Virus record (IMG/VR): IMGVR_UViG_3300028549_000507
Span: 1 to 64,000 of that record
Source: a virus
Lineage: Duplodnaviria > Caudoviricetes
DNA: 64,000 nt
Reading direction: 5' to 3' (one strand)
In this document: one piece after another, positions 9,071 through 62,840 of the stretch
Numbering within the stretch: the stretch's first letter is position 1
Layout of the letters: every line of letters begins with the position of its first letter
Position numbers and translations under genes: made by a program
Notes under the pieces: model-generated
What the model was told of the DNA's origin: nothing
The model's database searches: none
The model's input: only the letters and a program-made list of their open reading frames with translations

Positions 9071-9100
9071 GAAGAGAGGGGCTTCGGCTCCTCTCTTTTC
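9071..9100 (+). terminator. Intrinsic terminator of the capsid operon
   Basis: GAGAGGGG-CTTCGG-CTCCTCTC followed by TTTT. Confidence 0.85.
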
Positions 9101-9111
9101 TTGTACCATAG

Positions 9112-9142
9112 AAAAAAAAGAGAGTGGCATTACACCACTCTC
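9112..9142 (-). terminator. Intrinsic terminator for the minus-strand operon
   Basis: GAGAGTGG/CCACTCTC stem with an 8-nt T-tract on the minus strand. Confidence 0.85.
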
Positions 9143-9149
9143 AATTATA

Positions 9150-9806
9150 TTATTCCGGTATATCTACTGGAGGTTTCTCACTTTCTTTTAATTCCTGCAT
9201 CATCTGAGCATGCTTTTCGGCCACCTTTCTAGCATTACCACTAAACTCAGGAGATGTTGTCATTACTTCAATAAATGCTTTGTGGAATTTACTAAACTCC
9301 GATATACATTCTTTAACTTTATTCTCAACCACCTCAAGAGAATCTAGAGTATGAAATCTTGATGTATCAAATGGATAATTGGCGGAAACGCGACAATATG
9401 GACATTGTATTTCAAAGACCGAAGGAACTTTAACATCTAAAATCTTAGATGCCAAATGTATCTCCCAGTAATAGAAGTTGCGATAATCCTGACTCATATC
9501 AGTTGGTCTTACTCTTGAAATAGCTTCTCTAAATCTATTAGGATCTATGGTATACTTTTCATATACCATCTTAAGAATACCATTATATTGATCCTTGAGT
9601 TGTTTAACATAATATTCTGTAGGATGGTTCGTCATAGGGTAGAATTCCGGAACCGTCCGATATCTTATGTATTCCCCACAATTAATACATGAGAATCGGA
9701 TCTCCTCAACCGTTGATTGCTGAGGAAGTTTTCCAGAAGGATGATCCAAATAATCATAGCGATTCTTATTACCTTTTACTGTTACTGCTAATCCTGTTCT
9801 ACTCAT
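9150..9806 (-). CDS. Hypothetical protein with two CxxC pairs (possible Zn-binding)
   Basis: CINC and CPYC in a 218 aa ORF. Confidence 0.6.
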   Translation of the reverse strand: MSRTGLAVTVKGNKNRYDYLDHPSGKLPQQSTVEEIRFSCINCGEYIRYRTVPEFYPMTNHPTEYYVKQLKDQYNGILKMVYEKYTIDPNRFREAISRVRPTDMSQDYRNFYYWEIHLASKILDVKVPSVFEIQCPYCRVSANYPFDTSRFHTLDSLEVVENKVKECISEFSKFHKAFIEVMTTSPEFSGNARKVAEKHAQMMQELKESEKPPVDIPE

Positions 9807-10147
9807 CCGTCACACCTTTGCTCAGATATGTATTCACTTGCACTTTTATACTTTGGAATGTGTGGTTGATCCTCCTCATCATTGATCGGGAGACTCTTCA
9901 TAACATTGGATAGACCATACCGGATATTGGTCATAATTTTCTCTTGATTTTTTATTAGAAGCTTATAAGTTTCTACCAAGTCATCGAGAATAGAAATTCT
10001 ATCAGTCATTTCCACAATTTGAGCATCCATCTCATTCGCATCAACAATAAATGTACGGATAATATCCGTAAGACGAGATATCTCGATATGAGCATCATCT
10101 CGCTCACGCTTGTACTTATCGGCCTTATTTTCTTTAGACATAATCAT
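9803..10147 (-). CDS. Hypothetical coiled-coil protein
   Basis: 114 aa; 4-nt stop/start overlap with the next gene. Confidence 0.6.
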   Translation of the reverse strand: MIMSKENKADKYKRERDDAHIEISRLTDIIRTFIVDANEMDAQIVEMTDRISILDDLVETYKLLIKNQEKIMTNIRYGLSNVMKSLPINDEEDQPHIPKYKSASEYISEQRCDG

Positions 10148-10171
10148 TCCTTTTTCTAAACATACGCAATT

Positions 10172-10555
10172 TTAAAGATGACATGATTCATCTTCCTCTA
10201 TAAGATTTATATTCCCATTCTCAAAACTAACTTTGAGAGAATTGATAGCCTTCCGCATATCCCCAGAGATATCGATTGTAGGAGGGAGATCCTGTTTCAT
10301 AAGTATATTAGCATACATACAATCAAGAACTCCCTTTAACGAATTGATAGCTGTTGAGTTTTGGAAGTATATAAATACATTTCCTTTTTCATCCGATTTC
10401 AAAGATTTTAAATCTTTAGATAATTCGATAAAAAACTTTCCATAACCCATAGGGTATACTAGAAGAATTTTCCCGAGAACCTTAGATGCCATTACTTTAA
10501 ATTCTGATTTTAAATTCCTAGAGGGTAGCTCAACGCTGATATCGGATACTCCCAT
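10172..10555 (-). CDS. Hypothetical protein
   Basis: 127 aa, SD AAGGA, operon context. Confidence 0.6.
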   Translation of the reverse strand: MGVSDISVELPSRNLKSEFKVMASKVLGKILLVYPMGYGKFFIELSKDLKSLKSDEKGNVFIYFQNSTAINSLKGVLDCMYANILMKQDLPPTIDISGDMRKAINSLKVSFENGNINLIEEDESCHL

Positions 10556-10570
10556 GATTCTATTCCTTTA

Positions 10571-10783
10571 TCACAAGATTTTTGAAACAATAAATGATGC
10601 AAATACTATAAGTATGATTGCTCCGATTATAACTTTGATAGTCATCCATTCGAAGTTAGGTTGAGTTGTACCACACGACTCATCCTCATCAAATCCATAC
10701 TCATCATCGAAATCATAATCCTCAGGTTCAATTCTCCAATTGCGATCTTTTGGATAATTGCTGAAAGAGTCTGTTTCATTCAT
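10571..10783 (-). CDS. Small membrane-anchored protein
   Basis: Acidic N-half and C-terminal hydrophobic helix (VIIGAIILIVFASFIV); SD AGGAGG. Confidence 0.65.
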   Translation of the reverse strand: MNETDSFSNYPKDRNWRIEPEDYDFDDEYGFDEDESCGTTQPNFEWMTIKVIIGAIILIVFASFIVSKIL

Positions 10784-10894
10784 TTAAATCCTCCTATTGT
10801 AGATTATAGAGTGCCTACATTCATAGACATCATGATTATATATATATTTAAAATTAAATATTAAAGGAGCTGGTTTTACCCAGCCCCAATATAA

Positions 10895-11212
10895 TTAAAT
10901 TAATACGGTTCGAATTGCATCGAATCCTGTAATCAATGCGCCAGTTACAACTGGTGTAATTCCGGTATTAGTTAGTCCACTTAGAATACTTGGAGCAGCC
11001 ATACCTGTAGTTACTGCATTTTTAAAATCTGTTGGTGCAATAATTACTATACCAAGTATACCAACTACGCCAGAAATAACACACTGTAACAGGAAATAAA
11101 GATTAATATCTCCGTATGCTTTAGTTGTAAGTATCTCCAACAGTCTAAGTAAAGAGATGGCCGTCCCTCCAATAAATCCGCCAATGATGTATTCTTTTGC
11201 AGGAATAGTCAT
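10895..11212 (-). CDS. Small multi-pass membrane protein (holin candidate)
   Basis: 105 aa with 2-3 hydrophobic segments and its own late promoter. Confidence 0.4.
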   Translation of the reverse strand: MTIPAKEYIIGGFIGGTAISLLRLLEILTTKAYGDINLYFLLQCVISGVVGILGIVIIAPTDFKNAVTTGMAAPSILSGLTNTGITPVVTGALITGFDAIRTVLI

Positions 11213-11243
11213 ATGGTTCCTCCACGATTAAATATTAGTAATA

Positions 11244-11255
11244 CACTAATATGTT
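11244..11255 (-). promoter_or_regulatory. Late promoter AACA-N6-TG
   Basis: AACATATTAGTG. Confidence 0.65.
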
Positions 11256-11258
11256 AAT

Positions 11259-11828
11259 TTAGATGTGGGGAATAGTTTCGTGTAAATGAGTTATAACTTT
11301 TACTCGTTTATCGAGCTTAAATTCAACGGCATGGTCATAATTGTGCGGAGTGTGTTCATTGCTAACCATAAATAATTTAGCTTTAGAACCTATACAATCT
11401 TTTATTGCGAAAGCATTATCATCCACAATTATAGAAGCGTTAAGGGAATCTACCAAAGGTCGTTTACTCTTCCCATCTGTAAACCAAACTTCTTCGATTT
11501 TTGGAATATGTCTTAGAACCATATCCAAAGTAGCCTTACCGATCGTAGATTCAGCTCGAGCAGTTACACATATTGGCTTATAACCTAACTGAATAAGTTC
11601 ATCAACAAACTCTTTAGCACCTGCAATCGGATTAAAACTTCCCATAATTGTAGGATCATTGAATCTCTTATTGATTAATTCCGCTACATAGCTTGGAATA
11701 TCCATCTTACTTAGATCATAATGTCTTTTAATATGACCTAAGTTAAGTTCATTCAAAGTATCAGTTATAACGGTATTTTTGAATAAAGTATCATCAATAT
11801 CTAATACTGCAATAGGGCGATAAAACAT
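11259..11828 (-). CDS. HAD-superfamily phosphatase (5'(3')-nucleotidase-like)
   Basis: Motif I VLDIDDTL, motif II VTAR, motif IV IVDDN; start moved to the ATG at 11828 (SD AGGA). Confidence 0.75.
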   Translation of the reverse strand: MFYRPIAVLDIDDTLFKNTVITDTLNELNLGHIKRHYDLSKMDIPSYVAELINKRFNDPTIMGSFNPIAGAKEFVDELIQLGYKPICVTARAESTIGKATLDMVLRHIPKIEEVWFTDGKSKRPLVDSLNASIIVDDNAFAIKDCIGSKAKLFMVSNEHTPHNYDHAVEFKLDKRVKVITHLHETIPHI

Positions 11829-11860
11829 AAAGTATCCTAAAGTTAAAGTTAAGTATCTTA

Positions 11861-11872
11861 CAATTAATTGTT
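11861..11872 (-). promoter_or_regulatory. Promoter AACA-N6-TG
   Basis: AACAATTAATTG upstream of the HAD gene. Confidence 0.6.
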
Positions 11873-11905
11873 TCGCATTAAATACAAAAACATATATAAA
11901 CCAAG

Positions 11906-11917
11906 AACATTTTATTG
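11906..11917 (+). promoter_or_regulatory. Late promoter AACA-N6-TG
   Basis: AACATTTTATTG. Confidence 0.65.
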
Positions 11918-11951
11918 TAAGTTTAATTTCCATCAATAAGGGAGATCGTAT

Positions 11952-13886: not shown

Positions 13887-13891
13887 TATTT

Positions 13892-13921
13892 GAGGTATAG
13901 GGGGAATACTCCCTATACCTC
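13892..13921 (+). terminator. 11-bp hairpin between 11952 and terL (terminator/attenuator)
   Basis: GAGGTATAGGG/CCCTATACCTC with a weak T-tract. Confidence 0.55.
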
Positions 13922-13945
13922 TTATAAAAATACTACGGAGGAATA

Positions 13946-16024: not shown

Positions 16025-16055
16025 AAAAAGAAGGAGAGCGTAATGCTCTCCTTCT
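16023..16055. terminator. Terminator, family T2
   Basis: A7-GAAGGAGAGC-GTAAT-GCTCTCCTTC; related copies at 27070, 28041 and 62420. Confidence 0.85.
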
Positions 16056-16211
16056 CTATTTATATCGACAGTCCTCAACGATCTGATCGATCGATCGGGA
16101 ATTATGTTTGTCGATATACTCTTTACAGTATCCCATACATTCCCTATACGATAAAAGAACTCCTCCGAAAATCATGATAAATATAAACCATTTTTTAATA
16201 GAAGCTTTCAT
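16056..16211 (-). CDS. Unannotated 51-aa cassette ORF (MKASIKKWFIFIMIFGGVLLSYRECMGYCKEYIDKHNSRSIDQIVEDCRYK)
   Basis: SD AAGGA plus TTATT-ATG, its own promoter/leader, stop abutting a terminator, N-terminal hydrophobic segment. Confidence 0.75.
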   Translation of the reverse strand: MKASIKKWFIFIMIFGGVLLSYRECMGYCKEYIDKHNSRSIDQIVEDCRYK

Positions 16212-16326
16212 AATAAATCCTTTTCTTGGTACCATAGATAAATATAATTAATTAGAGTGTATGGTATAGTCTTTCTATCCATTCTCCACTATTAAATATA
16301 TACTTTATAATTAATTTAAAAAACTT
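16212..16326 (-). promoter_or_regulatory. Early promoter plus family-A hairpin leader plus CTATGGTAC box
   Basis: TATATTTAATAGT at 16288-16300; 48/49 nt identical to 62742-62790. Confidence 0.85.
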
Positions 16327-16355
16327 AAAAAAGAAGAGGGATTACTCCCTCTTCT
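16327..16355 (-). terminator. Terminator, family T1
   Basis: AGAAGAGGGA-GTAA-TCCCTCTTCT plus T-tract; related copies at 29980, 54214 and 62813. Confidence 0.85.
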
Positions 16356-16362
16356 AATAATT

Positions 16363-17091: not shown

Positions 17092-17103
17092 AACATCTTA
17101 TTG
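17092..17103 (+). promoter_or_regulatory. Late promoter AACA-N6-TG
   Basis: AACATCTTATTG. Confidence 0.7.
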
Positions 17104-25847: not shown

Positions 25848-27071
25848 ATGATTATTGATTCTAATGATCTATCTTTTAAAGATATTGTTGAGATATTAAA
25901 CAAAGAGACTATTACAGCAGACGATTTTCTTACCTTCTGTAAAAATAAGTCTGTAGACGATCCTAAGGGCGGATTTAAAGTTATCAAATCCAAATGGCAT
26001 ATACATAGCGTTATTCCACTTATGCCTAAGGATGTTTCGAATCTTGATACACAAGTTGAGACTACTATAGGTAGAGCACTTGCTAATAGAGTATTAAAGA
26101 TTGATATATTTGGTGATAAGTTTCCATACCTAAATGCACCTTTGAATATCAATGAATTCATCGACGAAGTTACAAAAGAAGCACTGATTGGTACAGTTAC
26201 TACCGCTCAAGTTATTCAATTATTGAATTCTGCAATATGGTTGATGAGATTTTTGGATATGACTATTCCATCATTATCTAAAGTCGCACTACAGATGCCT
26301 GCTTCTGCTAGAAAGCTCAGAGACGACCTAACTGAGAAATATAAGGCTTACATTGAAACTGGCGATATTCGCTATGTAAAAGATGTAGAGGGTCCTGTAC
26401 TTCAAGAAGTTATAAATGTGCTTTCTAAAGATCCAAGTTGGATGTTATACCATGTAGGTAAACCAGACCAAGGAAACCATTTGAAACAGACTGTCGGCAC
26501 ATTCTCACCAATTTTCAATCCTGGAACTGGTAAGTATGATATTCCAAGTGGTAACCTTCAGAGCGGACATAATCCTAACCTATATGATGCCATGGCTAAT
26601 ATGAATATCGTTGGTTCATATAAGCGAGCGGTTCAGACTCAAGATGGTGGTACAATCGTTAAGAAATTGTATGGCTGTATGAATCCTATTAAAGCTGGAC
26701 CTGATGGTTCTGATTGTAAGACTACATTGTATAAAGATGTATTTCTTTCAAAGGATAACTTGAAGTATTATCTTTGGAATTATTTCATTGATAATGGTAA
26801 GATTATGCTTCTAACTCCTAAAATTGCTAAAGATTTTATGAATAGAAAAATGCAATTTAGGTCGGCATTGTATTGTAAATATCCTTCCCCATTTGAGATC
26901 TGTAACAAGTGTGCAGGAGAGATTCCTTATAAGACTAACCTTAGAAGTATTGGTAGTACGACTGCTCGTATTGGGTTTAACTTTGTACAATTGAGTATGA
27001 AGGCATTCCATAACTCGACAATCCAATTGACTGATACTGACCCGTTCAAGTATATGAAGTTGTCTAAATAA
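25848..27071 (+). CDS. rpoC: Multisubunit RNA polymerase beta-prime middle fragment (probably virion RNAP)
   Basis: Bridge helix AVQTQDGGTIVKKL (cf. TADSGYLTRRL), Zn site CK..FRSALYC..ICNKCAG, trigger loop VQLSMKAFH; ends just after the trigger loop. Confidence 0.85.
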   Translation: MIIDSNDLSFKDIVEILNKETITADDFLTFCKNKSVDDPKGGFKVIKSKWHIHSVIPLMPKDVSNLDTQVETTIGRALANRVLKIDIFGDKFPYLNAPLNINEFIDEVTKEALIGTVTTAQVIQLLNSAIWLMRFLDMTIPSLSKVALQMPASARKLRDDLTEKYKAYIETGDIRYVKDVEGPVLQEVINVLSKDPSWMLYHVGKPDQGNHLKQTVGTFSPIFNPGTGKYDIPSGNLQSGHNPNLYDAMANMNIVGSYKRAVQTQDGGTIVKKLYGCMNPIKAGPDGSDCKTTLYKDVFLSKDNLKYYLWNYFIDNGKIMLLTPKIAKDFMNRKMQFRSALYCKYPSPFEICNKCAGEIPYKTNLRSIGSTTARIGFNFVQLSMKAFHNSTIQLTDTDPFKYMKLSK

Positions 27072-27107
27072 AAAAAAAGAAGGAAGCGTAATGCTTCCTT
27101 CTTTTTT
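27070..27107. terminator. Bidirectional terminator, family T2
   Basis: A-tract-GAAGGAAGC-GTAAT-GCTTCCTTC-T-tract. Confidence 0.85.
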
Positions 27108-27108
27108 C

Positions 27109-27369
27109 CTAACATTCAATTCCGTACGTTAGGAAGTACTGCATTTCGTGAAAGCTTCTCATAGCTTTCACTACTGATGGAATAGTTGAGACATACGTTT
27201 CAACGATATCCCATGATCCTGTTACTGGGTCGTGAAACATATCGGCCAGGCAGATGATATCATCTGAATTCTGGGGGTAGTTCCCAGAATACATCGTGGT
27301 GTGATTTTCAGATGACGTGGCTGTAACGAAATTTGAAAAGTCAGAATTGGTTTCGATAGTTCTTTTCAT
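27109..27369 (-). CDS. 86-aa cassette ORF with hairpin-dense coding sequence
   Basis: GGATCTATT-ATG start, family-C leader, stop next to a terminator. Confidence 0.7.
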   Translation of the reverse strand: MKRTIETNSDFSNFVTATSSENHTTMYSGNYPQNSDDIICLADMFHDPVTGSWDIVETYVSTIPSVVKAMRSFHEMQYFLTYGIEC

Positions 27370-27488
27370 AATAGATCCAATCCGGGCGTATTGTTCGCCC
27401 TATAATATAATTAATAGAAGGTAAGTTAACACTCGTTACTTCCTTCTTTGTTCACTATTAAATATACACATCAATAATCGTTTATTAC
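27370..27488 (-). promoter_or_regulatory. Early promoter plus family-C two-hairpin leader
   Basis: TATATTTAATAGT at 27454-27466; 57/58 nt identical to 54150-54207. Confidence 0.85.
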
Positions 27489-27519
27489 AAAAAAAAAGAG
27501 GTGACTAATGTCACCTCCC
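27489..27519 (-). terminator. Intrinsic terminator
   Basis: GAGGTGAC-ATTA-GTCACCTC plus T-tract. Confidence 0.85.
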
Positions 27520-27523
27520 ATTT

Positions 27524-27931
27524 TTATCGTATAGCTTTAAGACACTCTTCAAACCGCCCAAATCGACGATAGCGATATTCGGTTTGTCTTGCGGTCATTT
27601 CTACAATATGACCATTGATATTAACTTCGATTGATTCGTCTTCTTTGAGATCTTCAATCAAACATAATGGTATACGATTAAGTGCCAACTCACTCTTTTC
27701 AGGATCGGCTCTAAGTCTTTTAGGGATACCATGATCTCCCCAGTTCTCACTGGTATCTCCTGAACCATCTTTACTGTTTGTTATCCAAATCTGGACAACC
27801 GTTTCATCGCCATAGATACCCAATTTTTCACCATTACTTCCATACCATTTTGGTAGAACTGCGAATGATGATGCCTTAGCTGCTTTGTTTGGGATGATAA
27901 AGAATTCTGCTTTTACGACTACTTTACTCAT
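27524..27931 (-). CDS. 135-aa cassette ORF, hypothetical
   Basis: Start moved to MSKVV (GGACTTATT-ATG); the track start falls inside the CTATGGTAC box. Confidence 0.7.
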   Translation of the reverse strand: MSKVVVKAEFFIIPNKAAKASSFAVLPKWYGSNGEKLGIYGDETVVQIWITNSKDGSGDTSENWGDHGIPKRLRADPEKSELALNRIPLCLIEDLKEDESIEVNINGHIVEMTARQTEYRYRRFGRFEECLKAIR

Positions 27932-28040
27932 AATAAGTCCGTTCCTAGTACTCTTGAGTACCATAGAAAAATGTTATAAGATATAGATCAGTCAATCTAT
28001 TCTAGTATTAAATATATAATCTATAATTCATTTAAAAAAT
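27932..28040 (-). promoter_or_regulatory. Early promoter plus family-B hairpin leader plus CTATGGTAC box
   Basis: TATATTTAATACT at 28004-28016; ATAGAT/ATCTAT stem; near-identical to 29331-29420 and 43213-43265. Confidence 0.85.
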
Positions 28041-28071
28041 AAAAAAAAAGAGGAAGCACAATGCTTCCTCC
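28041..28071 (-). terminator. Terminator, family T2
   Basis: GAGGAAGCA-TTG-TGCTTCCTC plus T-tract. Confidence 0.85.
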
Positions 28072-28081
28072 TAAAAATTGA

Positions 28082-28426
28082 TCAATCTCCAGTAACATAC
28101 CGATCATATCCGAGTTCTTCAAGATGTGAAATAGTTTCTTTCACAATCCTATTAATTATATGAATACTAGACTCTTCAGGATAGTCTATAAATCCACGAG
28201 GATGGATTCTGGATTTATTAATCCAAACTTCATCATTCACATCAACCAATATGTGTAACTGTCTGTCGATCATACCTCTATCGATAATATGTAGATTAGT
28301 ATATTCAAGATGTGCAATGGTCGTTGTTGGTATTCGTTCAATAACAATTACGCCGGTAGTGAACAAATTCATTACATCATTTACAGAATACTTTACAGGT
28401 GGTCTTGTAGGAATTTCAAAGTCCAT
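28082..28426 (-). CDS. Hypothetical early protein
   Basis: 114 aa, SD GGAG. Confidence 0.65.
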   Translation of the reverse strand: MDFEIPTRPPVKYSVNDVMNLFTTGVIVIERIPTTTIAHLEYTNLHIIDRGMIDRQLHILVDVNDEVWINKSRIHPRGFIDYPEESSIHIINRIVKETISHLEELGYDRYVTGD

Positions 28427-28448
28427 ATTTTTTCTCCATTTTTAAAAA

Positions 28449-29315
28449 TTAACATGTATGAAAGATTTTTGGATTAGCTTCCATATCATCCATATCAACA
28501 CTAATGCTACCAGACTCATCGAGTGTGAAAGTGCAATAGCCGACTATTCTAGCACATGTTCCAAGTCGGAGGTTCGCTCTATGAGTAGATAAGCATGATA
28601 GCGCATATAACCCTTCTAATACATTGTCAATGTATCTTTGATCTATATTTGCTGTACGAACGAATGTCATAGTCCGTTCGATCAAACTCATCTCCTCTTC
28701 ATATTCTGAGAAGAATGTTTTGTAACATTCGGCATAATTTTTAAGCGACATTCCGTTAGACACCGATACAAGATCATTCTTAACAGTCAACGCATATGCT
28801 TCCGGAGTCTCACATACATACCTAACATTACCATAAATCATACTCTGTAGATTATCTCCTAATATGAGGTCATGTGTTATGTTTTTGAAGTATCTGGAGT
28901 AATCCAAATCATACTTACTGACGTTTAGAGGGTCAGACGATATTGATATAACATCGGAACAAATTTTGGAGATGATATTTGATATAACGTTATTATGAGA
29001 TGGGTCTAAAAATATAGATCCAAATCTTTCATTTGTCATAGTCATCTTTCCAAGCATATTTAAGATTAACTTCTTCTTCTTGGACCCTCCAAACTTAACA
29101 CTCTTAAAACGGCGTAAGTATGTGTTATAATATCGAATTTTATCACGCATAGGTCCAATCAATATGGTTCTCGACATTGACCCTTTGGTGACAACCTCAA
29201 CATCATACTCTCCAAGATAATCGATTCTCCCATCGATTAGACTTAAAAGATCTACCAAATGGTCTTTTGGTTTTGAAGTTTCTTTGTTACTTGGACACAT
29301 TGATACATTTGTCAT
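28449..29315 (-). CDS. Hypothetical early protein
   Basis: 288 aa, AGGAG-TCTATT-ATG, family-B leader. Confidence 0.7.
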   Translation of the reverse strand: MTNVSMCPSNKETSKPKDHLVDLLSLIDGRIDYLGEYDVEVVTKGSMSRTILIGPMRDKIRYYNTYLRRFKSVKFGGSKKKKLILNMLGKMTMTNERFGSIFLDPSHNNVISNIISKICSDVISISSDPLNVSKYDLDYSRYFKNITHDLILGDNLQSMIYGNVRYVCETPEAYALTVKNDLVSVSNGMSLKNYAECYKTFFSEYEEEMSLIERTMTFVRTANIDQRYIDNVLEGLYALSCLSTHRANLRLGTCARIVGYCTFTLDESGSISVDMDDMEANPKIFHTC

Positions 29316-29406
29316 AATAGACTCCTACTAAAAATATTATAAGATATAGATCATTCAATCTATTCTACTATTAAATATATAATCTATAATTTATTTAAAA
29401 AATAAT
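29316..29406 (-). promoter_or_regulatory. Early promoter plus family-B leader (no CTATGGTAC)
   Basis: TATATTTAATAGT at 29367-29379. Confidence 0.85.
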
Positions 29407-29438
29407 AAAAAAAAAGAGGAACCACCCTCTTTTTTTTT
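29407..29438. terminator. Bidirectional terminator
   Basis: A-tract-GAGG-AACCAC-CCTC-T-tract. Confidence 0.7.
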
Positions 29439-29907
29439 AGAATTCAAGATCCGGAAATTTCGAAGCATAATCCGCTTGAACGGAAAATGCTTCTATTTCA
29501 GAAGCTCTCTCATTGTATGGGAGAGCCGCTTCGCCCTTGATGGAATTTATACCATCAAGGGTTTGCATTTGGCGCGCATGAACTAATTCATGCACTATAA
29601 AATGCGAATAATTCCCAAGACGTCCGAATATATCGGCATTTTTTACGGCGTCGAATCCGCCGAAATCCAGTATTATGCACGCTTTACGTGTCACAAAACT
29701 AGATATACACATAAGTGCAAGAACATCCAAACCCAAACGGGTTGTAAATGTTTTTGCCGATGATGCCGCTACAGGCATAACAAACGTTTTAAACCCTTTT
29801 GGAAGACCGAGATCTTCCAAAATGGATTCAGGAACATTCACCCGTTTAGCTACGAGTGAATATATCGCTACTAATATAGTAGCGATAAGTCTTTCAAATT
29901 TCATCAT
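29437..29907 (-). CDS. Zinc metallopeptidase-like cassette protein
   Basis: HELVH (HExxH) plus a downstream EIEA third-ligand motif; hairpin-dense CDS. Confidence 0.7.
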   Translation of the reverse strand: MMKFERLIATILVAIYSLVAKRVNVPESILEDLGLPKGFKTFVMPVAASSAKTFTTRLGLDVLALMCISSFVTRKACIILDFGGFDAVKNADIFGRLGNYSHFIVHELVHARQMQTLDGINSIKGEAALPYNERASEIEAFSVQADYASKFPDLEF

Positions 29908-29942
29908 AATATATAATCCTTTAATAAATTTACATTCTAATC

Positions 29943-29955
29943 ACTATTATATATA
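29943..29955 (-). promoter_or_regulatory. Early promoter variant
   Basis: TATATATAATAGT(G). Confidence 0.7.
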
Positions 29956-29979
29956 CACATGAAATATCATTACAAACAT

Positions 29980-30008
29980 AAAAAGAAGAGGGATTACTCC
30001 CTCTTCTT
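29980..30008 (-). terminator. Terminator, family T1
   Basis: AAGAAGAGGGA-GTAA-TCCCTCTTCTT plus T-tract. Confidence 0.85.
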
Positions 30009-43053: not shown

Positions 43054-43088
43054 AAAAAAAAGAAGGATAGCTATAGCTATCCTTCTTT
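43052..43088. terminator. Bidirectional terminator
   Basis: A-tract-GAAGGATAGCTATAGCTATCCTTC-TTT. Confidence 0.85.
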
Positions 43089-43090
43089 AG

Positions 43091-43180
43091 TTACCACCAA
43101 TCTCTTCTAAAGAGTTTGTAAGTGATAAGTGATGCTACGCATGTAACCGCGATAATGATAAGTTTAGTTGCAACTTTCAT
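43091..43180 (-). CDS. Unannotated 29-aa membrane peptide (MKVATKLIIIAVTCVASLITYKLFRRDWW)
   Basis: AGGA..GGATTCATT-ATG, its own promoter, family-B leader and terminator; single TM helix. Confidence 0.75.
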   Translation of the reverse strand: MKVATKLIIIAVTCVASLITYKLFRRDWW

Positions 43181-43285
43181 AATGAATCCTATTCCTGGTA
43201 TTCGTACCATAGAAAAATTGTTATAGGATATAGATCAGTCAATCTATTCCACTATTAAATATATACTTTATAATTCATTTATTAC
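43181..43285 (-). promoter_or_regulatory. Early promoter plus family-B leader plus CTATGGTAC box
   Basis: TATATTTAATAGT at 43251-43263; box at 43204-43212. Confidence 0.85.
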
Positions 43286-43317
43286 AAAAAGGAGGGAATT
43301 ACCCTCCTTCTTTTTTT
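43286..43317. terminator. Terminator (T1-related)
   Basis: AAGGAGGG-AATTA-CCCTCCTT with flanking A/T tracts. Confidence 0.8.
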
Positions 43318-53722: not shown

Positions 53723-53813
53723 TTTACTCTCCGAATGTTACATTTATTTGTTGAGTGAATTATAATTTTTAATCCTATGGCGTTATCTAATATATATTTA
53801 AACGATATCATTG

Positions 53814-53847
53814 AAAAAAAAAAGAAAGGCTTGCACCCTTTCTTTTT
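53814..53847. terminator. Bidirectional terminator
   Basis: A-tract-GAAAGG-CTTGCAC-CCTTTC-T-tract. Confidence 0.8.
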
Positions 53848-54106
53848 AACTCATACTCGCCATTACGCCGAGTATTGTCCCTGCAAGCACAGTGCTCGCC
53901 AGAACCGTGTTGAGTACGATCTTTTGAACACCTTTGACTTCCGACAACCCGTCGGAAGTTGAGAGCATCATGAGCGGGATGCTCATGATCGCCAGTGCAA
54001 GCGCGATTCCTATGGCAATATATGCCATAGGTTTAATCATCATAATCACCGCAACCGTAACAACAGTAACGATAATTTGAAGTGCTTCTTTTGTAGAATC
54101 TTTCAT
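53846..54106 (-). CDS. 86-aa membrane cassette protein with hairpin-dense CDS
   Basis: Two to three hydrophobic stretches; GGATTTATT-ATG; family-C leader. Confidence 0.7.
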   Translation of the reverse strand: MKDSTKEALQIIVTVVTVAVIMMIKPMAYIAIGIALALAIMSIPLMMLSTSDGLSEVKGVQKIVLNTVLASTVLAGTILGVMASMS

Positions 54107-54213
54107 AATAAATCCAATCCGGGCATATATTGTTTTGCCCTATAATTAATTAATAGAAGGTAAGTTAACATTCGTTACTTCCTTCTTTGTTCACTATTAA
54201 ATATACATATTAC
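54107..54213 (-). promoter_or_regulatory. Early promoter plus family-C two-hairpin leader
   Basis: TATATTTAATAGT at 54193-54205. Confidence 0.85.
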
Positions 54214-54245
54214 AAAAAAAAAGAGAGAGGGATTACTCCCTCCCT
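54214..54245 (-). terminator. Terminator, family T1
   Basis: AGGGAGGGA-GTAA-TCCCTCTCT plus T-tract. Confidence 0.85.
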
Positions 54246-54246
54246 A

Positions 54247-54588
54247 CTAAGAATCCATAGAATCAGGATCGGTATCAACAATTTCCAAAAGATTACTTTC
54301 ATAATCAAGATGTAGATAAACTCTTTTTCCAACTTCACAATTGGAAGATCCCATTTCTTCAATGAGTTCTTTTACATGAGTATTGTTAAACCTAGCAAAT
54401 ATTACATTGCCAAGCGGTACAGATTTCTTAATATCCACAACACTTCCTTCTATGAAGTCTCTGTGGATATATTTATCAATCTGAGGATCATGTATCTTAA
54501 CCCATACAACTGCTCCATTCATGAACGTTTTTAACTTATATCTAAAACGTTCTGGGAATGATGTTACTTCGATAATTAGTCTACTCAT
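54247..54588 (-). CDS. 113-aa cassette ORF, hypothetical
   Basis: GGAGAATATT-ATG; own promoter and terminator. Confidence 0.7.
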   Translation of the reverse strand: MSRLIIEVTSFPERFRYKLKTFMNGAVVWVKIHDPQIDKYIHRDFIEGSVVDIKKSVPLGNVIFARFNNTHVKELIEEMGSSNCEVGKRVYLHLDYESNLLEIVDTDPDSMDS

Positions 54589-54660
54589 AATATTCTCCGT
54601 TATTAAAGTATTATGGATGCATCTCGATTGAGATGCATCCTATTCATTATTAAATATATA
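54589..54660 (-). promoter_or_regulatory. Early promoter variant plus palindromic leader
   Basis: TATATTTAATAAT at 54646-54658, then GGATGCATCTC-AATC-GAGATGCATCC (11-bp stem). Confidence 0.8.
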
Positions 54661-55111: not shown

Positions 55112-55116
55112 ATCTC

Positions 55117-56028: not shown

Positions 56029-56064
56029 AGAATCTCTCCAAATGAATAAAATTAATTAGATACA

Positions 56065-56076
56065 CATTATAATGTT
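56065..56076 (-). promoter_or_regulatory. Late promoter AACA-N6-TG
   Basis: AACATTATAATG upstream of the endolysin. Confidence 0.7.
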
Positions 56077-56080
56077 TACT

Positions 56081-56692: not shown

Positions 56693-56695
56693 AAA

Positions 56696-57710: not shown

Positions 57711-57942
57711 CAATACCATCCAATTCTTTTTGAATACGTTTACATCCCTCAATATCTCCAGCAACAAGGCATATTTTATGACCCTGAATTAACGCGATTC
57801 TTCTAGACTGGTTGACCATTTTTTCAGGAGCATCGTATAAGTGTAAGCCTCGGTTATTCATTTTCGCAAAGATTGTAGCGAAATGTCTTCTCTGTCTCTC
57901 CATAAAGATTTCTAATCTCTCTTTTCTACTTCTCGGTCTCAT
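57697..57942 (-). CDS. Small basic hypothetical protein
   Basis: 81 aa, SD GGAG. Confidence 0.6.
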   Translation of the reverse strand: MRPRSRKERLEIFMERQRRHFATIFAKMNNRGLHLYDAPEKMVNQSRRIALIQGHKICLVAGDIEGCKRIQKELDGIDVYE

Positions 57943-58258
57943 TTGGAACTCCTTCGGAAATATGAAAACTCTTATTAACTTTTATATACAAATTCGTATC
58001 AGCACACGCAACAGCTTCTTTCCAGTATATAATACTGTCAGTAACGCCTTCATCGATCCATCTAGTACATTCTTCTTCTGTAATTGGTTCTTTCCAATTA
58101 GCAACGCAAGATTGATTGACCGTACATTCTTTTAAATGAAACCACGGTTTATTTTCATTGAAGTATATCCCGTTATAACTCCCGCTGATAGTGGGAATGT
58201 CATCAAGACATACAAACATTTCTTCTTCGATTTTCAACATCCGAACAACACGTTTCAT
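57926..58258 (-). CDS. Hypothetical early protein
   Basis: 110 aa; upstream TATATTTATAAT promoter variant near 58285-58296. Confidence 0.6.
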   Translation of the reverse strand: MKRVVRMLKIEEEMFVCLDDIPTISGSYNGIYFNENKPWFHLKECTVNQSCVANWKEPITEEECTRWIDEGVTDSIIYWKEAVACADTNLYIKVNKSFHISEGVPNETEK

Positions 58259-58363
58259 AACATCCGACCTTGTTTAAATTGTTATTAACCAAATTATAAA
58301 TATATAATTTAATAAGATACTTGAAAAAAAAATGAGGTAGTAAATACCACCCCATTAATACGA

Positions 58364-58900
58364 TCAATCTGAGGAAGTTGAGGTAATGGATATAGACTCA
58401 TTATCGATAGCCATTATGGTTAACGTTTCGCCAATAGAACCATTCCACATCTGACCACTGATAGTAACCTTGCCAACTTCACCAAAACACAACTTAGCAA
58501 TGTGCATGTCTGATACAAAGTGTCTTAACTCTAATTTTCTTCGCTCCTTACTAATGATCAACCCATCAGGTTCCTCACAGATAAGTCTTGCCCCATTTTC
58601 AAATCCAATGATCACAGCAAACCGAAAGAATCTAGTAGCATCTGAATTATGTTTGATGAGATCAGTCGTTCTGGCTCTTGTAGTTGGATCATATGCTATA
58701 TATACATTTCTTATAAATCCGGTATCTTGGATAAGTACATATGTATTATCCTCAAGGTGGTCGATAAATTCAATATTATCATCAGTTCCAGTGATGATAT
58801 GTCTTAGTATTTGTACAGATTTCAATCCTCGAAAATCCGTCTCATTAAAATTAACAAACCCAACATTAAGTTCTTCCGAACTACACTTCTGCATATCCAT
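58364..58900 (-). CDS. Cassette ORF, hypothetical
   Basis: Start moved to MDMQK (AGGAG-TTATT-ATG). Confidence 0.65.
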   Translation of the reverse strand: MDMQKCSSEELNVGFVNFNETDFRGLKSVQILRHIITGTDDNIEFIDHLEDNTYVLIQDTGFIRNVYIAYDPTTRARTTDLIKHNSDATRFFRFAVIIGFENGARLICEEPDGLIISKERRKLELRHFVSDMHIAKLCFGEVGKVTISGQMWNGSIGETLTIMAIDNESISITSTSSD

Positions 58901-58982
58901 AATAACTCCTCTTATAATATTATTACACATTTGACATTCGTCCTATGTGTTCACTATTAAATATATAATTTAATATGAATTT
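58901..58982 (-). promoter_or_regulatory. Early promoter plus hairpin leader
   Basis: TATATTTAATAGTGAACA at 58948-58965 (shared with family C), then ACACAT..GAC-GAAT-GTC..ATGTGT. Confidence 0.8.
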
Positions 58983-59018
58983 AAAAAATGGGGTAAATAA
59001 ATACCCCATTAATATAAT

Positions 59019-60068
59019 CTAAAAATCATCCCAACCCGGAAGAGCAGAGCTCATATTATATGAAGTAACTGTAGTCTCGAAGAAGTTGGCTTTAGATGAA
59101 CCTTCTCCTTCCAAGTCTGCAATTCTTTCAAGATGCATATATGGATTCTTAGAGAACTTAGGATCAGTAAATAATTTACTTATACCAATAAATTCCAAAC
59201 GTTCATTAGTAATAAATTTTGTATACTGCTCAATAGAATCATCTGATATTCCGAGTACATTCTTTATAATATGTGTAGACCATTTAATCTCTTGTTCTAC
59301 CGCCATTTTAAACATTTCATTAATCTCTATATCATGAATAGATTCCCATACTTCCGGAGATTCTTTCTTGATTTCATTGATAATATGTTTAAATAATACA
59401 ACATGGAGGAGTTCATCTCTCTGGATAAGTTTGATGATATTAGCTGTACCATTCATCAAATTTCTAGAAGTTAATGTATAGAAGAAATTAAATCCATTGT
59501 AAAAATATATAGATTCAAGAAGATAGTTAGCAATAATAGTCTTCATAAAGTTCTTATTACTAGGATCATCCTCAAAATCTTGATATATAGAAGCTATGTA
59601 TTTATTTCTTTCTAGAAGAACCTCATCCTCACGCCACTTCTCATAAAGAGTATCTCTTGCAGGTTTATCTATAATACTCTCGATAATATATGCATAAGAC
59701 TTCGAATGAATAGATTCAAAGAAAGTTTGCACCGTTAGAGTTAGAGATACTTCTGGAGCTGTAATATACTTGGCTATATTAGGTAAGTTTGTAACCTGAA
59801 TACTATCTAAGAATACTAAGAAAGACAGTATCCCATCATAAGCAACCTTTTCATCAGGAGTTAATTTACGGTAATCTCGTACATCATCTGTAAGAGATAC
59901 CTTCTCCGGAATCCAGAAGTTATTCATCATATTAGTATAAAGGTTGTTTGCCCACTGATATTTAACATTGTTAAGGTTAAATAGATTAGTAGTATTACCA
60001 TCCAAAATACTTCTTTCAGAAAGTTCTTCAGTTCCGGTTTCATTAAATATAAGTTTAGTCTTCATCAT
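59019..60068 (-). CDS. nrdB: Ribonucleotide reductase class I beta subunit
   Basis: NFWIPE, FLDSIQ, ESIHSKSY (radical Tyr), LESIYFYNGF, RDELLH and the FFE C-terminal tail. Confidence 0.95.
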   Translation of the reverse strand: MMKTKLIFNETGTEELSERSILDGNTTNLFNLNNVKYQWANNLYTNMMNNFWIPEKVSLTDDVRDYRKLTPDEKVAYDGILSFLVFLDSIQVTNLPNIAKYITAPEVSLTLTVQTFFESIHSKSYAYIIESIIDKPARDTLYEKWREDEVLLERNKYIASIYQDFEDDPSNKNFMKTIIANYLLESIYFYNGFNFFYTLTSRNLMNGTANIIKLIQRDELLHVVLFKHIINEIKKESPEVWESIHDIEINEMFKMAVEQEIKWSTHIIKNVLGISDDSIEQYTKFITNERLEFIGISKLFTDPKFSKNPYMHLERIADLEGEGSSKANFFETTVTSYNMSSALPGWDDF

Positions 60069-60073
60069 ATCTC

Positions 60074-62332
60074 CTAATTAGCACAGCTTACACATTCTTC
60101 TTTAGACTTTTCAGAACCATCTTTTTGAATAGTTCTTGTATAATAAATAGCTTTACACTCGGATTTCCAAGCGAATATAATATTTTCAAAGATATCCTTA
60201 GCGGTGATATCTGAATTGAGATTGTACACAAGCTCCATACTAATTCCAGTATCGATCCATTTCTGAATAATAGATGTAATACGGATCACATCTCTTTGAT
60301 CTGTAAACTTATTCTCATTATAGAACCATCGTTTAGATCTAATATAAGGTGGGAATACAGGTACATTTCCATTAGAATTCTTTTCGATATGGAACTTAGA
60401 GTATGTAGGAAGAACACTTGCTGTACATCCGATGAGATTAGATGTAGATGTATTTGGAGCAATTGCTGTACATTGTGAGTTTCTTATTCCAAACACTTTA
60501 AGTTTATTGAATAATACTTTCCATTTTTCATACATACTTGAGTTAGAGTATTCATCAATAGTTTTATTGAGGATCTTACCTTTATAGAATTCTGAATTCT
60601 CATATGCTTCAAATGTTCCACGTTCTTTAGCCAAATCTATAGATGAATCATATGTATAATATGCAAATTTTTCAAATAGATTATCTACAAATTCTCCAGA
60701 TTCAGCATATCGTTTATCATTTATAGCTAACAAATCATGCAAACCCATATAACCGATACCGATTACTCTATATAGTCTATTGTGATTATCTGCATCCATT
60801 ACTGGTGGAGTTGTAATTTCTATAGCATTATCAAGTATTCTAACTGCCGTTCTATGGATTTGTTTAATTTCATCTTCATCCGTAATATCTATTTCTGCAA
60901 GATTTATAGAAACTAGGTTACATATATGGGTTTCCCCTATACGTCTAATCTCGGTCGATACTGCAGAATCATGCTCAGATTCCATTATTGAAGATGGTCT
61001 AAAGTTAGAGAATGATTCTACACAGAGATTAGCAGAACCAATATAACCACATTCTTTATTTGGATTATATTTGTTAGCGGTATCTTTGAAGAATATATAT
61101 GGCATACCGGTCTCAATTTGAGTTTTCATGATATGCTTCATAATATCTCTTGCTTGATGAACTCTTTTGAATTTGATCAATTCACTATGTTCGATAGTAA
61201 GATACCAATCTTCAAATGCTTTACCATGAAGTTCGAAGATATTTATACCAAATACCTTTTTAATTTCATATGGATCGAATGTTGTCCAAGGACCACTTTC
61301 TTCAACACGTCGCATGAATATGTCCGATATAACTACTTGTGGGAATACATCAAATGACTTTCTTCTAAGATCACCATTTTCAGTCTGCATTTCCAAGAAT
61401 TCAATAATATCATTGTGCCAAATATCCAATGCGACAGTAGCTGCACCAGCTCTATGACCATTCTGATCTACTGCAATCATTGTATCATTTACAATCTTAA
61501 TCCAAGGAAGAACTCCATTGGATCCTCCGAGTTGTCCTCTAAGATAAGATCCATTTGATCTAATTCTAGATACATTAACACCTACACCACCACCTGTAGC
61601 AGATATATTAGAAATATCTTTTACTGTTTGGAATATGCTGTCTAGGTTATCATCCATTGCTACGATGAAGCAAGATGATAGATTTCCATTAGGACGTCTA
61701 AGGTTTGTTAGGATAGGCGTTGCAAGAGATATCAATTTCCTAGTGATCATACTATAGAATTGGATTGTTACACTGTTGCGAACTTCCGGTTTCTCATTCA
61801 TTGCGAGGTACATTGATACTACCATAAACATTGTTTGAGGGAGTTCATATCCTATAAGATAACGGTTTTTAAGAATGTTTAAACCGGCGTATTCAAACAA
61901 TGCATCATTATCAAAATCCATAGAATTGAAGATTTCTCTAATAGATTCTTCATTATATCTTTCCAATATAACTTTATCATATTGATTCTCTTCAACCATT
62001 TTATTAACAAATGAAACAAACCCATCTACAGTATATTGGTCGAATTTAAGGTTTCGTTTGGCTTCTTTTGTAACTTCATGAAGGAGCATTCTAGCTGCAA
62101 AACTTGAGTAATCTAGGTTATTCAAATCACATTTAGTTACAGCATAGTGAATGATTGATTTCTGAATCTCACTGGTAGTGACAACTTCTGATTTAGAGAA
62201 TGCATCAATGTGGGCTTCTACTTCAAGGTGATCTATAGTGAGTCCTACGGAACAATCTCGTACAACTTTTCTAATTTTTTCAATATCAATTTTACTTTCA
62301 TGACCATGACGGTCAACTACGGTTACGCTCAT
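60074..62332 (-). CDS. nrdA: Ribonucleotide reductase class Ia alpha subunit with ATP cone
   Basis: N-terminal ATP cone, ATPIL, LSSCF, NLCVE, APNTS, KAIYY and C-terminal CVSC. Confidence 0.95.
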   Translation of the reverse strand: MSVTVVDRHGHESKIDIEKIRKVVRDCSVGLTIDHLEVEAHIDAFSKSEVVTTSEIQKSIIHYAVTKCDLNNLDYSSFAARMLLHEVTKEAKRNLKFDQYTVDGFVSFVNKMVEENQYDKVILERYNEESIREIFNSMDFDNDALFEYAGLNILKNRYLIGYELPQTMFMVVSMYLAMNEKPEVRNSVTIQFYSMITRKLISLATPILTNLRRPNGNLSSCFIVAMDDNLDSIFQTVKDISNISATGGGVGVNVSRIRSNGSYLRGQLGGSNGVLPWIKIVNDTMIAVDQNGHRAGAATVALDIWHNDIIEFLEMQTENGDLRRKSFDVFPQVVISDIFMRRVEESGPWTTFDPYEIKKVFGINIFELHGKAFEDWYLTIEHSELIKFKRVHQARDIMKHIMKTQIETGMPYIFFKDTANKYNPNKECGYIGSANLCVESFSNFRPSSIMESEHDSAVSTEIRRIGETHICNLVSINLAEIDITDEDEIKQIHRTAVRILDNAIEITTPPVMDADNHNRLYRVIGIGYMGLHDLLAINDKRYAESGEFVDNLFEKFAYYTYDSSIDLAKERGTFEAYENSEFYKGKILNKTIDEYSNSSMYEKWKVLFNKLKVFGIRNSQCTAIAPNTSTSNLIGCTASVLPTYSKFHIEKNSNGNVPVFPPYIRSKRWFYNENKFTDQRDVIRITSIIQKWIDTGISMELVYNLNSDITAKDIFENIIFAWKSECKAIYYTRTIQKDGSEKSKEECVSCAN

Positions 62333-62362
62333 TGGTTTCTCCTAAAGATAAATACTCGCTAC

Positions 62363-62374
62363 TAATAGACTGTT
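62363..62374 (-). promoter_or_regulatory. Promoter AACA-N6-TA
   Basis: AACAGTCTATTA upstream of nrdA. Confidence 0.65.
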
Positions 62375-62419
62375 TAATCGATTATATTTTTTAAATTTAT
62401 AACGATAGATGATATGTTC

Positions 62420-62460
62420 AAAAAAAAAAGAAGGAGAGCGCAATGCTCCCCTTTCTTTTT
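62420..62460. terminator. Bidirectional terminator, family T2
   Basis: A-tract-GAAGGAGAGC-GCAAT-GCTCCCCTTTC-TTTT. Confidence 0.8.
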
Positions 62461-62692
62461 ATTCTGAAGCCTTTCTAAGGGCACGGCGAAGTGCCGCTCC
62501 CTTATACGCTACGGAGTCATAGATATTCACCCACACGTCGAAATCTCCTTCCGGATCAATAGCGTGTCCGAAGATCCACGCATCTCCATTCATAATGAAC
62601 GAAGTCTGAATAGCCTCAACCCCCTGCACAGATACTTCTGTGATAAGGGTTCTAATTTCTTTGTCGCCGCTGTTTGTTGTAACTTTAATCAT
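62459..62692 (-). CDS. 77-aa cassette ORF, hypothetical
   Basis: Start moved to MIKVTT (AAGAAAAGGATCTATT-ATG); about 46% GC by hand count. Confidence 0.7.
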   Translation of the reverse strand: MIKVTTNSGDKEIRTLITEVSVQGVEAIQTSFIMNGDAWIFGHAIDPEGDFDVWVNIYDSVAYKGAALRRALRKASE

Positions 62693-62812
62693 AATAGATC
62701 CTTTTCTTGGCACACCTGTACCATAGTAAAAATATAGTTTGTTAGAGTATATGGTATAGTCTTTCTATCCATTCTCCACTATTAAATATACACATCAATA
62801 ATCGTTTATTAC
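62693..62812 (-). promoter_or_regulatory. Early promoter plus family-A leader plus CTATGGTAC box
   Basis: TATATTTAATAGT at 62778-62790; box at 62718-62726. Confidence 0.85.
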
Positions 62813-62840
62813 AAAAAGAGAGGGATTGCTCCCTCTCCTT
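62813..62840 (-). terminator. Terminator, family T1
   Basis: GAGAGGGA-GCAA-TCCCTCTC plus T5. Confidence 0.8.

Follow-up and report, generated by a model that had tools for sequence, protein, structure and literature searches.

Portable regulatory frames around unrelated small genes in an uncultured AR9/phiKZ-like giant phage: anatomy, mosaicism and probable shuffling of cassettes

Introduction

The window analysed here is the first 64 kb (positions 1 to 64,000) of a 200,251-bp virus record with 33% GC (IMGVR_UViG_3300028549_000507, designated G000), which derives from an uncultured giant phage of microbial mats and is estimated to be 72% complete. Dispersed in the window are ten minus-strand cassettes, in each of which a nearly invariant promoter-like motif leads through an untranslated leader into a small open reading frame (ORF). 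The ORF product is referred to as the cargo, the regulatory sequences around the ORF as the frame, and each cassette is named after the coordinate of its motif. A preliminary description of the window had compared the cassettes with the promoter-stem-loop (PeSL) cassettes that shuffle genes in T4-type phages (Arbiol et al. 2010, PMC2839356; Comeau, Arbiol and Krisch 2014, PMC4122927). It proposed a gene capture and shuffling system of an AR9-like jumbo phage in which the frame, not the gene, is the conserved unit. For PeSLs, recombination at short shared regulatory sequences has been proposed (PMC4122927) and excised mini-circles were demonstrated experimentally (PMC2839356; PMC4122927).

The best matches of the terminase large subunit (terL), at ~30-33% identity, are Bacillus phages BpSp and Goe21 (PBS1/AR9-like), Staphylococcus S6-like phages and phiKZ-like phages, and by terL the genome is not that of a T4-like myovirus. 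Pfam searches for RNA polymerase genes gave two Rpb2_6 matches (124.6 kb and 194.5 kb) and one Rpb1_2 match (137 kb). From these matches the genome is predicted to carry two RNA polymerase sets (split beta/beta'-like). The AR9-like assignment made earlier fits the terL neighbours, the two polymerase sets and the shape of the promoter.

Organization of the cassettes

With at most one mismatch, TATATTTAATAGT is matched 12 times in the window, compared to 1.05 expected and a maximum of 5 in 100 shuffles. All ten coordinates listed in the preliminary description carry the motif, and all are on the minus strand; the two further matches (5208, plus strand; 48057, minus strand) lie inside ORFs and look like chance. 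The whole genome contains 19 matches, ~15 of them intergenic, promoter-like and facing an ORF, to which a position weight matrix search adds ~5 weaker sites of the form TATATATAATAGTG. In the logo of 15 sites the motif is long, AT-rich and near-invariant; its core is TATAT, the region upstream is rich in T and a purine follows a few nt downstream. The promoter comprises 13-14 nt, TATATTTAATAGT followed by the purine, which stands seven bases past the TATATT core. Unit 29943 has the promoter TATATATAATAGT, unit 28004 the ACT variant and unit 54646 the AAT variant. Lineage variants occur in the more distant relatives described below (CTATATTAAGTTATG in G001, TATATTAAATAGTG in G004, TATATTTAATATTG in L068 and TATATACATTAATG in G002), and a search of IMG/VR with a pattern of promoter plus TATTATG returned 61 single, unrelated chance matches.

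The features of the cassettes are collected in Table 1. A terminator T-tract precedes the promoter in nine of the ten units, one short of the universal rule first described, with 54646 placed directly after an ORF. The leaders are 35-86 nt long and most were confirmed to belong to a few repeated families: A (16288, 62778), B (28004, 29367, 43251) and C (27454, 54193), together seven of the ten. Every leader ends in a GGA- or GGAG-like Shine-Dalgarno (SD) sequence followed by ATTATG, as previously noted, the full start being TATTATG in nine units and CATTATG in one. Genome-wide, when ORFs of 25 codons or more preceded by an SD-like motif are counted, there are 13 SD-linked TATTATG starts, nine of which are those of these units. 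The first ORF stops beside a terminator in 9/10 units, consistent with the statement that most do, and 29367 drives two ORFs.

Terminator-like sites are enriched between 15.9 and 30.1 kb (18 versus 5.9 expected). The core GGGAG-N-AATCCC recurs in eleven terminators of the genome, forming a G-rich stem with a GNRA tetraloop (GUAA, GAAA or GCAA) at its tip. This design, termed T2, is also present in the relatives G001, L068 and L069 and may be a clade-specific termination signal. Part of the likeness among frames therefore reflects constraint and not mobility.

The cargo proteins are unrelated to one another, as had been claimed, with no pairwise similarity among them, and Pfam and PHROG searches of ten cargo proteins, the full set except the 29-aa peptide, gave no family. 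The idea that the frames are diverged paralogous genes was rejected because the cargo proteins share nothing while the flanks are up to 100% identical. Several cargoes are membrane peptides, and the cargoes are presumably host-takeover, exclusion or anti-defence accessories. The 156-aa cargo of 29943, which matches no family, has a hydrophobic N-terminus and a HELVH (HExxH) motif, features of what may be a small metalloprotease.

Table 1. Coordinates of the cassettes and related features, with identities of frame and cargo to the close relative where the cassette is common to both phages. Positions are those of the window unless G000 is stated.
Feature	Extent	Strand	Upstream terminator and block	Promoter	Leader	ORF or content	Downstream terminator	Frame identity	Cargo identity
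Unit 16288	16029-16355	-	T2 terminator 16332-16355; upstream block 16301-16325	16288-16300	A, 16212-16287	51 aa, 16056-16211	T1, 16029-16055		
Unit 27454	27073-27519	-	terminator 27496-27519; U1 block	27454-27466	C, 27370-27453	86 aa, 27109-27369	T1-type, bidirectional, 27073-27107		
Unit 28004	27496-28072	-	terminator 28048-28072; U2 block	28004-28016	B with M hairpin, 27932-28003	135 aa, 27524-27931		84%	77%
Unit 29367	28048-29439	-	terminator 29406-29439	29367-29379	B without M module, 29316-29366	288 aa, 28449-29315; 114 aa, 28082-28426		88%	80.5%
Unit 29943	29406-30008	-	T2 terminator 29983-30008	29943-29955	35 nt	156 aa, 29437-29907			
Unit 43251	43059-43312	-	T2-like terminator ~43285-43312; hybrid U1/U2 block	43251-43263	B with M hairpin, 43181-43250	29-aa membrane peptide, 43091-43180	palindromic, 43059-43088	93%	89%, local (47% of ORF)
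Unit 54193	53818-54243	-	T2 terminator (core 54229-54240); truncated U1 block	54193-54205	C, 54107-54192	86 aa, membrane, 53846-54106	~53818-53842		
Unit 54646	54217-54658	-	no terminator	54646-54658	54589-54645	113 aa, 54247-54588	T2	96%	93%
Unit 58953	58325-59005	-	terminator; U2 block	58953-58965	with 5' hairpin, 58901-58952	178 aa, 58364-58900	~58325-58353	80%	75%, local (18% of ORF; 49% in protein)
Unit 62778, between nrdD and nrdA	62423-62838	-	T2 terminator (core 62822-62833); U1 block	62778-62790	A with M hairpin, 62693-62777	77 aa, 62459-62692	T1, 62423-62453		
Empty junction (scar)	9103-9116	-	terminator T-run + CTATGGTAC			TTTTTCTATGGTAC scar, no cassette			
In-operon 127-aa gene	10156-10566	-				127 aa, 10172-10555; in window, absent from close relative			
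GGGAG-N-AATCCC terminators (T2 design)	window 16338, 29990, 54229, 62822; G000 67272, 142009, 149441, 152710, 166195, 178604, 194484								

Frames as mosaics within one genome

Self-comparison of the genome and segment-wise comparison of the cassettes resolved the frames into short blocks that are 88-100% identical between copies but do not have the same partners throughout. For 27454, the upstream block and promoter are those of 62778 (41 nt, 100%), whereas the leader has its counterpart in 54193, with a match that begins at the promoter and ends shortly after the ATG (108 nt, 92.6%). Leader identity links 62778 instead to 16288 (49 nt, 98%), and the upstream block of 16288 groups with 43251, 28004 and 29367, all users of leader B. 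Copies within a leader family are 92-100% identical over 40-108 nt, and every combination of upstream type (U1 or U2) with leader type occurs. Since the partners of upstream block and leader are discordant, crossovers are needed at or near the invariant promoter.

Units 16288 and 62778 can be aligned over the upstream T2 terminator, promoter, leader, SD and ATG. The alignment resumes at the stop codon and continues through the terminator T1, a downstream family that travels with leader A; between these flanks lie unrelated ORFs of 51 and 77 aa. A 14-mer composed of a T-run and CTATGGT is enriched in the window (7 matches versus 1.2 expected), and the motif T-run-CTATGGTWC is found at cassette borders in both G000 and G001, after terminators and inside leaders. 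Because the same short sequences (terminator arm plus T-run, T-run-CTATGGTAC, promoter, SD-TATTATG) surround unrelated genes, they constitute portable homology.

Cassette loci in relatives

Two routes led to a close relative, a homolog of one cargo at 78% identity and protein clusters at 90%. Its contigs (L117, L119, L122 and L124) were compared over ~46 kb, with core genes having 92-97% nucleotide identity to the window. Four of the nine assessable units differ (16288, 62778, 27454 and 54193), the same locus carrying a different payload or none, as anticipated for a shuffling system. The leader families with the most similar copies in the genome (A and C) are exactly those on these strain-variable cassettes, and cargo unique to the close relative has no homolog anywhere in the window's genome.

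The whole 16288 cassette (window 16039-16326) is absent from L119, with the junction in an A-run/terminator arm and the short homology AAAAAAGAAG in common. At window 9105-9124, L119 has 736 bp more, comprising a promoter-like motif, 128-aa and 77-aa membrane ORFs and a terminator. This block is flanked by the 19-20-nt direct repeat T(9)CTATGGT, one copy of which is left in the window as the empty junction. The 27454 locus in L117 retains the U1 block, promoter and T1, with leader C and the 86-aa ORF swapped for ~100 unrelated nt (reverse complement of ~5945-6032) that hold no credible ORF. This promoter-~100 nt-T1 stretch may represent an empty cassette or encode a small non-coding RNA. For 54193, the homology shared with L124 on the upstream side starts exactly at the promoter (window 54192). 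There the window has leader C, the 86-aa ORF and its terminator where L124 has leader A, a 96-aa ORF and T1, and the two rejoin at the T-run before the gyrB upstream region. Both interior replacements thus start at the promoter, the other end being the shared T1 at 27454 and a terminator T-tract at the gyrB locus. Gene lengths alone hint that a third strain has different cargo ahead of gyrB, a case left out of the counts given here.

Unit 62778 is absent from L124 together with nrdAB, and a 317-aa gene occupies the locus there along with a decayed frame and ~100 nt left over from the 3' end of nrdB. The remnant (L124, reverse complement of ~10530-10631; window 59019-59123) lies beside the decayed promoter frame TATGGTGATTGTA and suggests that nrdA and nrdB were deleted in the close relative's lineage. 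The indel of the in-operon 127-aa gene (L119 6598 to 6606 corresponding to window 10155 to 10567) has as its junction a repeated ribosome-site/start block, AGGAAT...ATG. The 114-aa gene, which follows the 288-aa gene in the window, is fragmented in L117 and follows the 135-aa gene.

The cassettes common to both phages are 28004, 29367, 43251, 54646 and 58953. The ortholog of the 135-aa cargo of 28004 in L117 has 78% protein identity, 43251 is present in L122 with a diverged peptide, and the ortholog of the 178-aa cargo of 58953 is in L124.

More distant relatives are G001 (181 kb), G002, G004, L068 and L069, with terL at 55-71% identity (71% for G001). These phages retain the synteny of 14-54 kb but not the cassette loci. 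Behind terL, the cassette of G001 is another one, of 93 aa, and none is present in L068, L069 and G002. The 29-aa cassette of 43251, which follows the gene for a 591-aa protein in the window, is missing from G001 and G002, where the same two convergent genes are separated by 30-33 nt containing one terminator. Between the 407-aa and 598-aa genes there are other units in G001 and none in G002. In G001 a homolog of the 135-aa cargo of 28004 (31% identity) occupies another locus, beside gyrB. G001 also contains near-identical frame pairs of its own at dispersed sites (75 nt at 98.7% and 99 nt at 90%), indicating that the phenomenon is clade-wide.

Assemblies of the same phage from other samples end exactly at frames (L063 at window 16289, L104 at ~27.5 kb, and L105), as expected where dispersed repeats are longer than the assembler k-mer.

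Probable recombination at the frames

The gain, loss and replacement of cassettes between relatives take place at frame elements, and the explanation considered probable is that cassettes are shuffled by recombination at these reusable frames. Each unit would be an autonomous, mostly single-gene and probably immediate-early transcription unit of an AR9/phiKZ-like jumbo phage. The promoter with its T-rich upstream block would most likely be read by the RNA polymerase injected with the virion, and the transcript would open with a hairpin a few nt from its 5' end and finish at a strong terminator, in many cases one with a GNRA loop. Recombination between frame repeats, either general or by short homology, within one genome or between co-infecting relatives, would delete, insert, relocate or replace the cargo, the frame surviving.

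The enzymology of this recombination we infer from the searches and the junctions. No match to a tyrosine (PF00589) or serine (PF00239) recombinase was obtained in the 200-kb record (estimated 72% complete), and the RecA family gave a sub-threshold match only. Since no integrase was found, ordinary short-homology recombination is the likeliest mechanism. Different events occurred at different junctions (promoter, terminator arm, T-run-CTATGGT and SD-ATG), which argues for a homology-driven rather than a site-specific process. The evidence therefore favours shuffling at shared regulatory punctuation over the dedicated capture machine that had also been proposed, for which neither integrase nor resolvase was found.

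Several points weigh against shuffling at the frames. Differences in gene content must end in intergenic DNA in any phage, so that part of the coincidence with frames is expected. The proposal that the frame is the conserved unit holds in that frame identity exceeds cargo identity in all five orthologous cassettes; core genes, however, are conserved at least as well as the frames. In at least three other samples or runs, contigs of this phage show 99.99-100% identity, collinearity and no structural variants, which indicates that turnover is not fast on that scale. Strains of G001 (G003, G005 and G006) likewise have no differences at frames, the three 59-72-bp differences among them all being inside coding DNA. 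The four contigs of the close relative all come from the metagenome of a single sample; its gene order also occurs in contigs of one Logan-assembled run, which may or may not be independent of that sample. Finally, the comparison does not distinguish gain from loss for each event.

Leader hairpins

Most leaders open with a hairpin 3-6 nt past the predicted start. The strongest is at 54646 (z = -5.9), a perfect 11-bp 5' hairpin. The 5' hairpins of 54646 and 58953 are unique to each, and the short leader of 29943 has no convincing hairpin. Families A and B have a second module, M, comprising TTTTTCTATGGTAC, a short hairpin and then AGGAA..GGAT.TATTATG; the M hairpin (CTATGGTAC...) stands before a weak SD and UAUUAUG. 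The M module is also found in G001 ahead of unrelated genes, with ~88% identity to that of G000 (by eye from the alignment), the terL proteins of the two phages being 71% identical. A search of IMG/VR for the module gave matches in the G001 lineage only.

The M stem stays paired through an AU-to-UA exchange between G000 and G001, with pairing in 88% of cells compared to 3-52% when one arm is slid, a covariation that is effectively one evolutionary event and hence of modest support. The 58953 hairpin changes from ACACAT/ATGTGT in the window to ACATAC/GTATGT in L124, giving two compensatory pairs. The compensatory changes in the M and 58953 hairpins indicate that the hairpins are selected as structures. 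Hairpins at the 5' terminus commonly shield mRNA from 5'-end-dependent decay, and those of the leaders may act in 5'-end protection or translation control. The first hairpins of G001 keep a UAAGRUU-like loop on varying stems. A hairpin apex, GAUUGACUGAU / GATTGACTGAT, recurs on different lower stems in leader B (28004, 29367 and 43251) and in the leader at G000 186314; it could be a protein-binding loop, or chance.

These properties raise the possibility that the leaders are mainly a post-transcriptional regulon signal, in which a factor of phage or host origin would bind the 5' hairpins and the CTATGGTAC hairpin with GGAUYUAUUAUG and so govern stability, translation or timed shut-off. Likeness among leaders would then reflect co-regulation, with recombination a by-product. 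Structures kept by compensatory changes, a loop or apex retained on different stems, an M module conserved between two phages with terL at 71% identity, and a TATTATG start nearly confined to these units are all consistent with such a signal. Three of the ten units are nevertheless without family leaders, an Rfam search of the window at gathering thresholds found no family, and the covariation derives from very few independent events. As this alternative also leaves the cargo swaps unexplained, it is held to be a tentative possibility, compatible with shuffling at the frames and not a replacement for it.

An alternative: acquisition of single genes

The cassettes could also be ordinary morons acquired singly by illegitimate recombination, with frames alike through functional constraint and without a role in recombination. 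The term moron was defined for temperate phages, in which such genes are often expressed from the prophage, and morons are not known to have a reusable frame in common; they were reportedly described in lambdoid and other phages by Juhala et al. in 2000 and by Hendrix et al. The present cassettes come under the definition, as promoter-ORF-terminator units between genes that are adjacent in a relative: the unit after terL is absent from L119, L068, L069 and G002, and that after the 591-aa gene from G001 and G002.

The T2 design and the promoter core, being common to the whole clade, are indeed constrained, and conservation of the M module between G000 and G001 and identical arrangements in several samples are further points in favour of constraint. 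The coexistence of several unrelated leader families indicates, however, that leader sequence is not tightly constrained, and constraint is then a poor explanation for the near-identity of copies within a family. Independent acquisitions also do not account for the discordance of upstream blocks and leaders, for two replacements starting exactly at the promoter or for an indel between 19-20-nt direct repeats. Acquisition without a role for the frames is considered unlikely.

Promoter recognition

In AR9, early promoters with the consensus AAATATATATTAT-6N-G are read by the injected virion polymerase and do not tolerate single changes, and early transcription of both AR9 and phiKZ is independent of the host (PMC5312081). 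Early promoters of phiKZ consist of an extended -10-like box and a T-rich upstream element (PMC8244752). The motif of the cassettes resembles the early promoters of AR9, phiKZ and phiR1-37 in being extended, AT-rich and near-invariant with a TATAT core (PMC5312081; PMC8244752), in its T-rich upstream region, in the purine at a fixed short distance downstream and in the presence of two multisubunit RNA polymerases. The precise sequence differs, as does the spacing, TATATT-8N-G in AR9 versus a predicted TATATT-7N-G here. In addition, PMC5312081 and PMC8244752 report no repeated leader families or cassette exchange.

An alternative, of low probability, is that the motif is a strong host sigma-A promoter (-10 TATATT, with TTGTAA as -35 in some) and the genes are early genes of the host polymerase, as in the PeSLs of T4. 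U1-type frames, 27454 and 29943 among them, read TTGTAA-18-TATATT, G001 has TGTAAT-17-TATATT, and the start predicted for sigma-A is the same purine. The -35 element is not consistent across units, however: in U2-type frames that position holds only a T-run, and the TTGTAA of 54193 is 4 nt away from the -10. Furthermore, the invariant TAATAGT that follows the -10 does not belong to sigma-A promoters, there is no enrichment of sigma-70-like sites between 15.9 and 30.1 kb (72 versus 71.7 expected), and the phage encodes polymerases of its own, early transcription of AR9 and phiKZ being host-independent (PMC5312081). Since the sigma-A reading fits the U1-type frames only and fails for the U2-type and 54193, the motif is assigned to the virion RNA polymerase, which by analogy probably reads it. 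Against this assignment, the U1-type spacing leaves sigma-A possible for those frames, and early timing, start site and polymerase are all drawn from analogy.

Comparison with known systems

An integron-like site-specific system, with T-run-CTATGGTWC an attachment site cut and joined by a phage-encoded enzyme, would if true represent capture of promoter-leader-gene-terminator cassettes in nucleus-forming jumbo phages and can draw on the enrichment of the motif, its conservation at cassette borders in G000 and G001 and its role as the direct repeat flanking the 736-bp indel, but it is very improbable given that, unlike in integrons, no tyrosine or serine recombinase was found with the cassettes in the 200-kb record (estimated 72% complete) and that other events used other junctions (promoter, terminator arms, SD-ATG).

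The parallel with PeSLs proved apt on structural and comparative grounds. A stem-loop or terminator stands directly upstream of the promoter as one composite element (9/10 units here), accompanied by an AT-rich upstream region and an early promoter, with SD and start codon at the 3' end (10/10). The neighbours of the elements are small ORFans of variable regions, indels and replacements have their ends inside or beside the elements, and degraded 'half' copies exist, here the scar at 9103-9116 and the decayed promoter in L124. The differences are that the PeSL promoter is a sigma-70 early promoter (-35, 17 nt, -10), whereas that of the present phage, which is AR9/phiKZ-like and not T4-like, resembles the jumbo-phage virion-polymerase type. 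The leaders here are long and structured and belong to discrete, reassorting families, and a matched downstream terminator family (T1) travels with leader A.

Shuffling at the frames would extend PeSL-type modular exchange from T4-like phages to the AR9/phiKZ-like jumbo lineage, where transcription of early genes is attributed to an injected phage polymerase. The promoter, leader and terminator grammar is a concrete one for an uncultured clade that aids annotation and may provide expression parts. About a dozen fast-turning-over early ORFans become candidates for host-takeover or anti-defence functions. The loci where cargo is swapped between a kept promoter and a terminator are natural cases, at single-nucleotide resolution, of diversification of the phage accessory genome.

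Neighbouring genes and additional observations

The identities first proposed for the neighbours of the units were borne out for terL, NrdD, NrdA, NrdB and GyrB. That of 'rpoC' is weakly supported, the 407-aa protein at 25848-27071 having a single marginal match, to the polymerase subunit gp74 of phiKZ (E 0.0025). Megablast and tblastn of window pieces against phage records returned no near match, the 990-aa neighbour protein had no relative in IMG/VR, and a PDB sequence search with three neighbour proteins gave no match. A metagenome search with GyrB found a 58% relative as the sole match.

Downstream of the 54193 terminator (~53800-53835), before gyrB, a TTTCAATGA.ATCGTTTAAATATATATTAG stretch is kept in the window and L124 and may belong to a second promoter class. 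The nrdD of the window (62844-63998 and beyond) encodes 1055 aa compared to 693 aa in the close relative, which is without ~1,039 bp (G000 63813-64851) that are in frame in the window; the extra segment looks like an intein or other in-frame insertion. An exact 40-nt direct repeat (1826-1865 and 3429-3468) begins ~10 nt inside the starts of the adjacent plus-strand ORFs 1816-3411 and 3419-4624, so that the two ORFs have their first codons in common, and may be another recombination module. Outside the window, G000 89745-90068 is a tandem 162-bp repeat with 97% identity.

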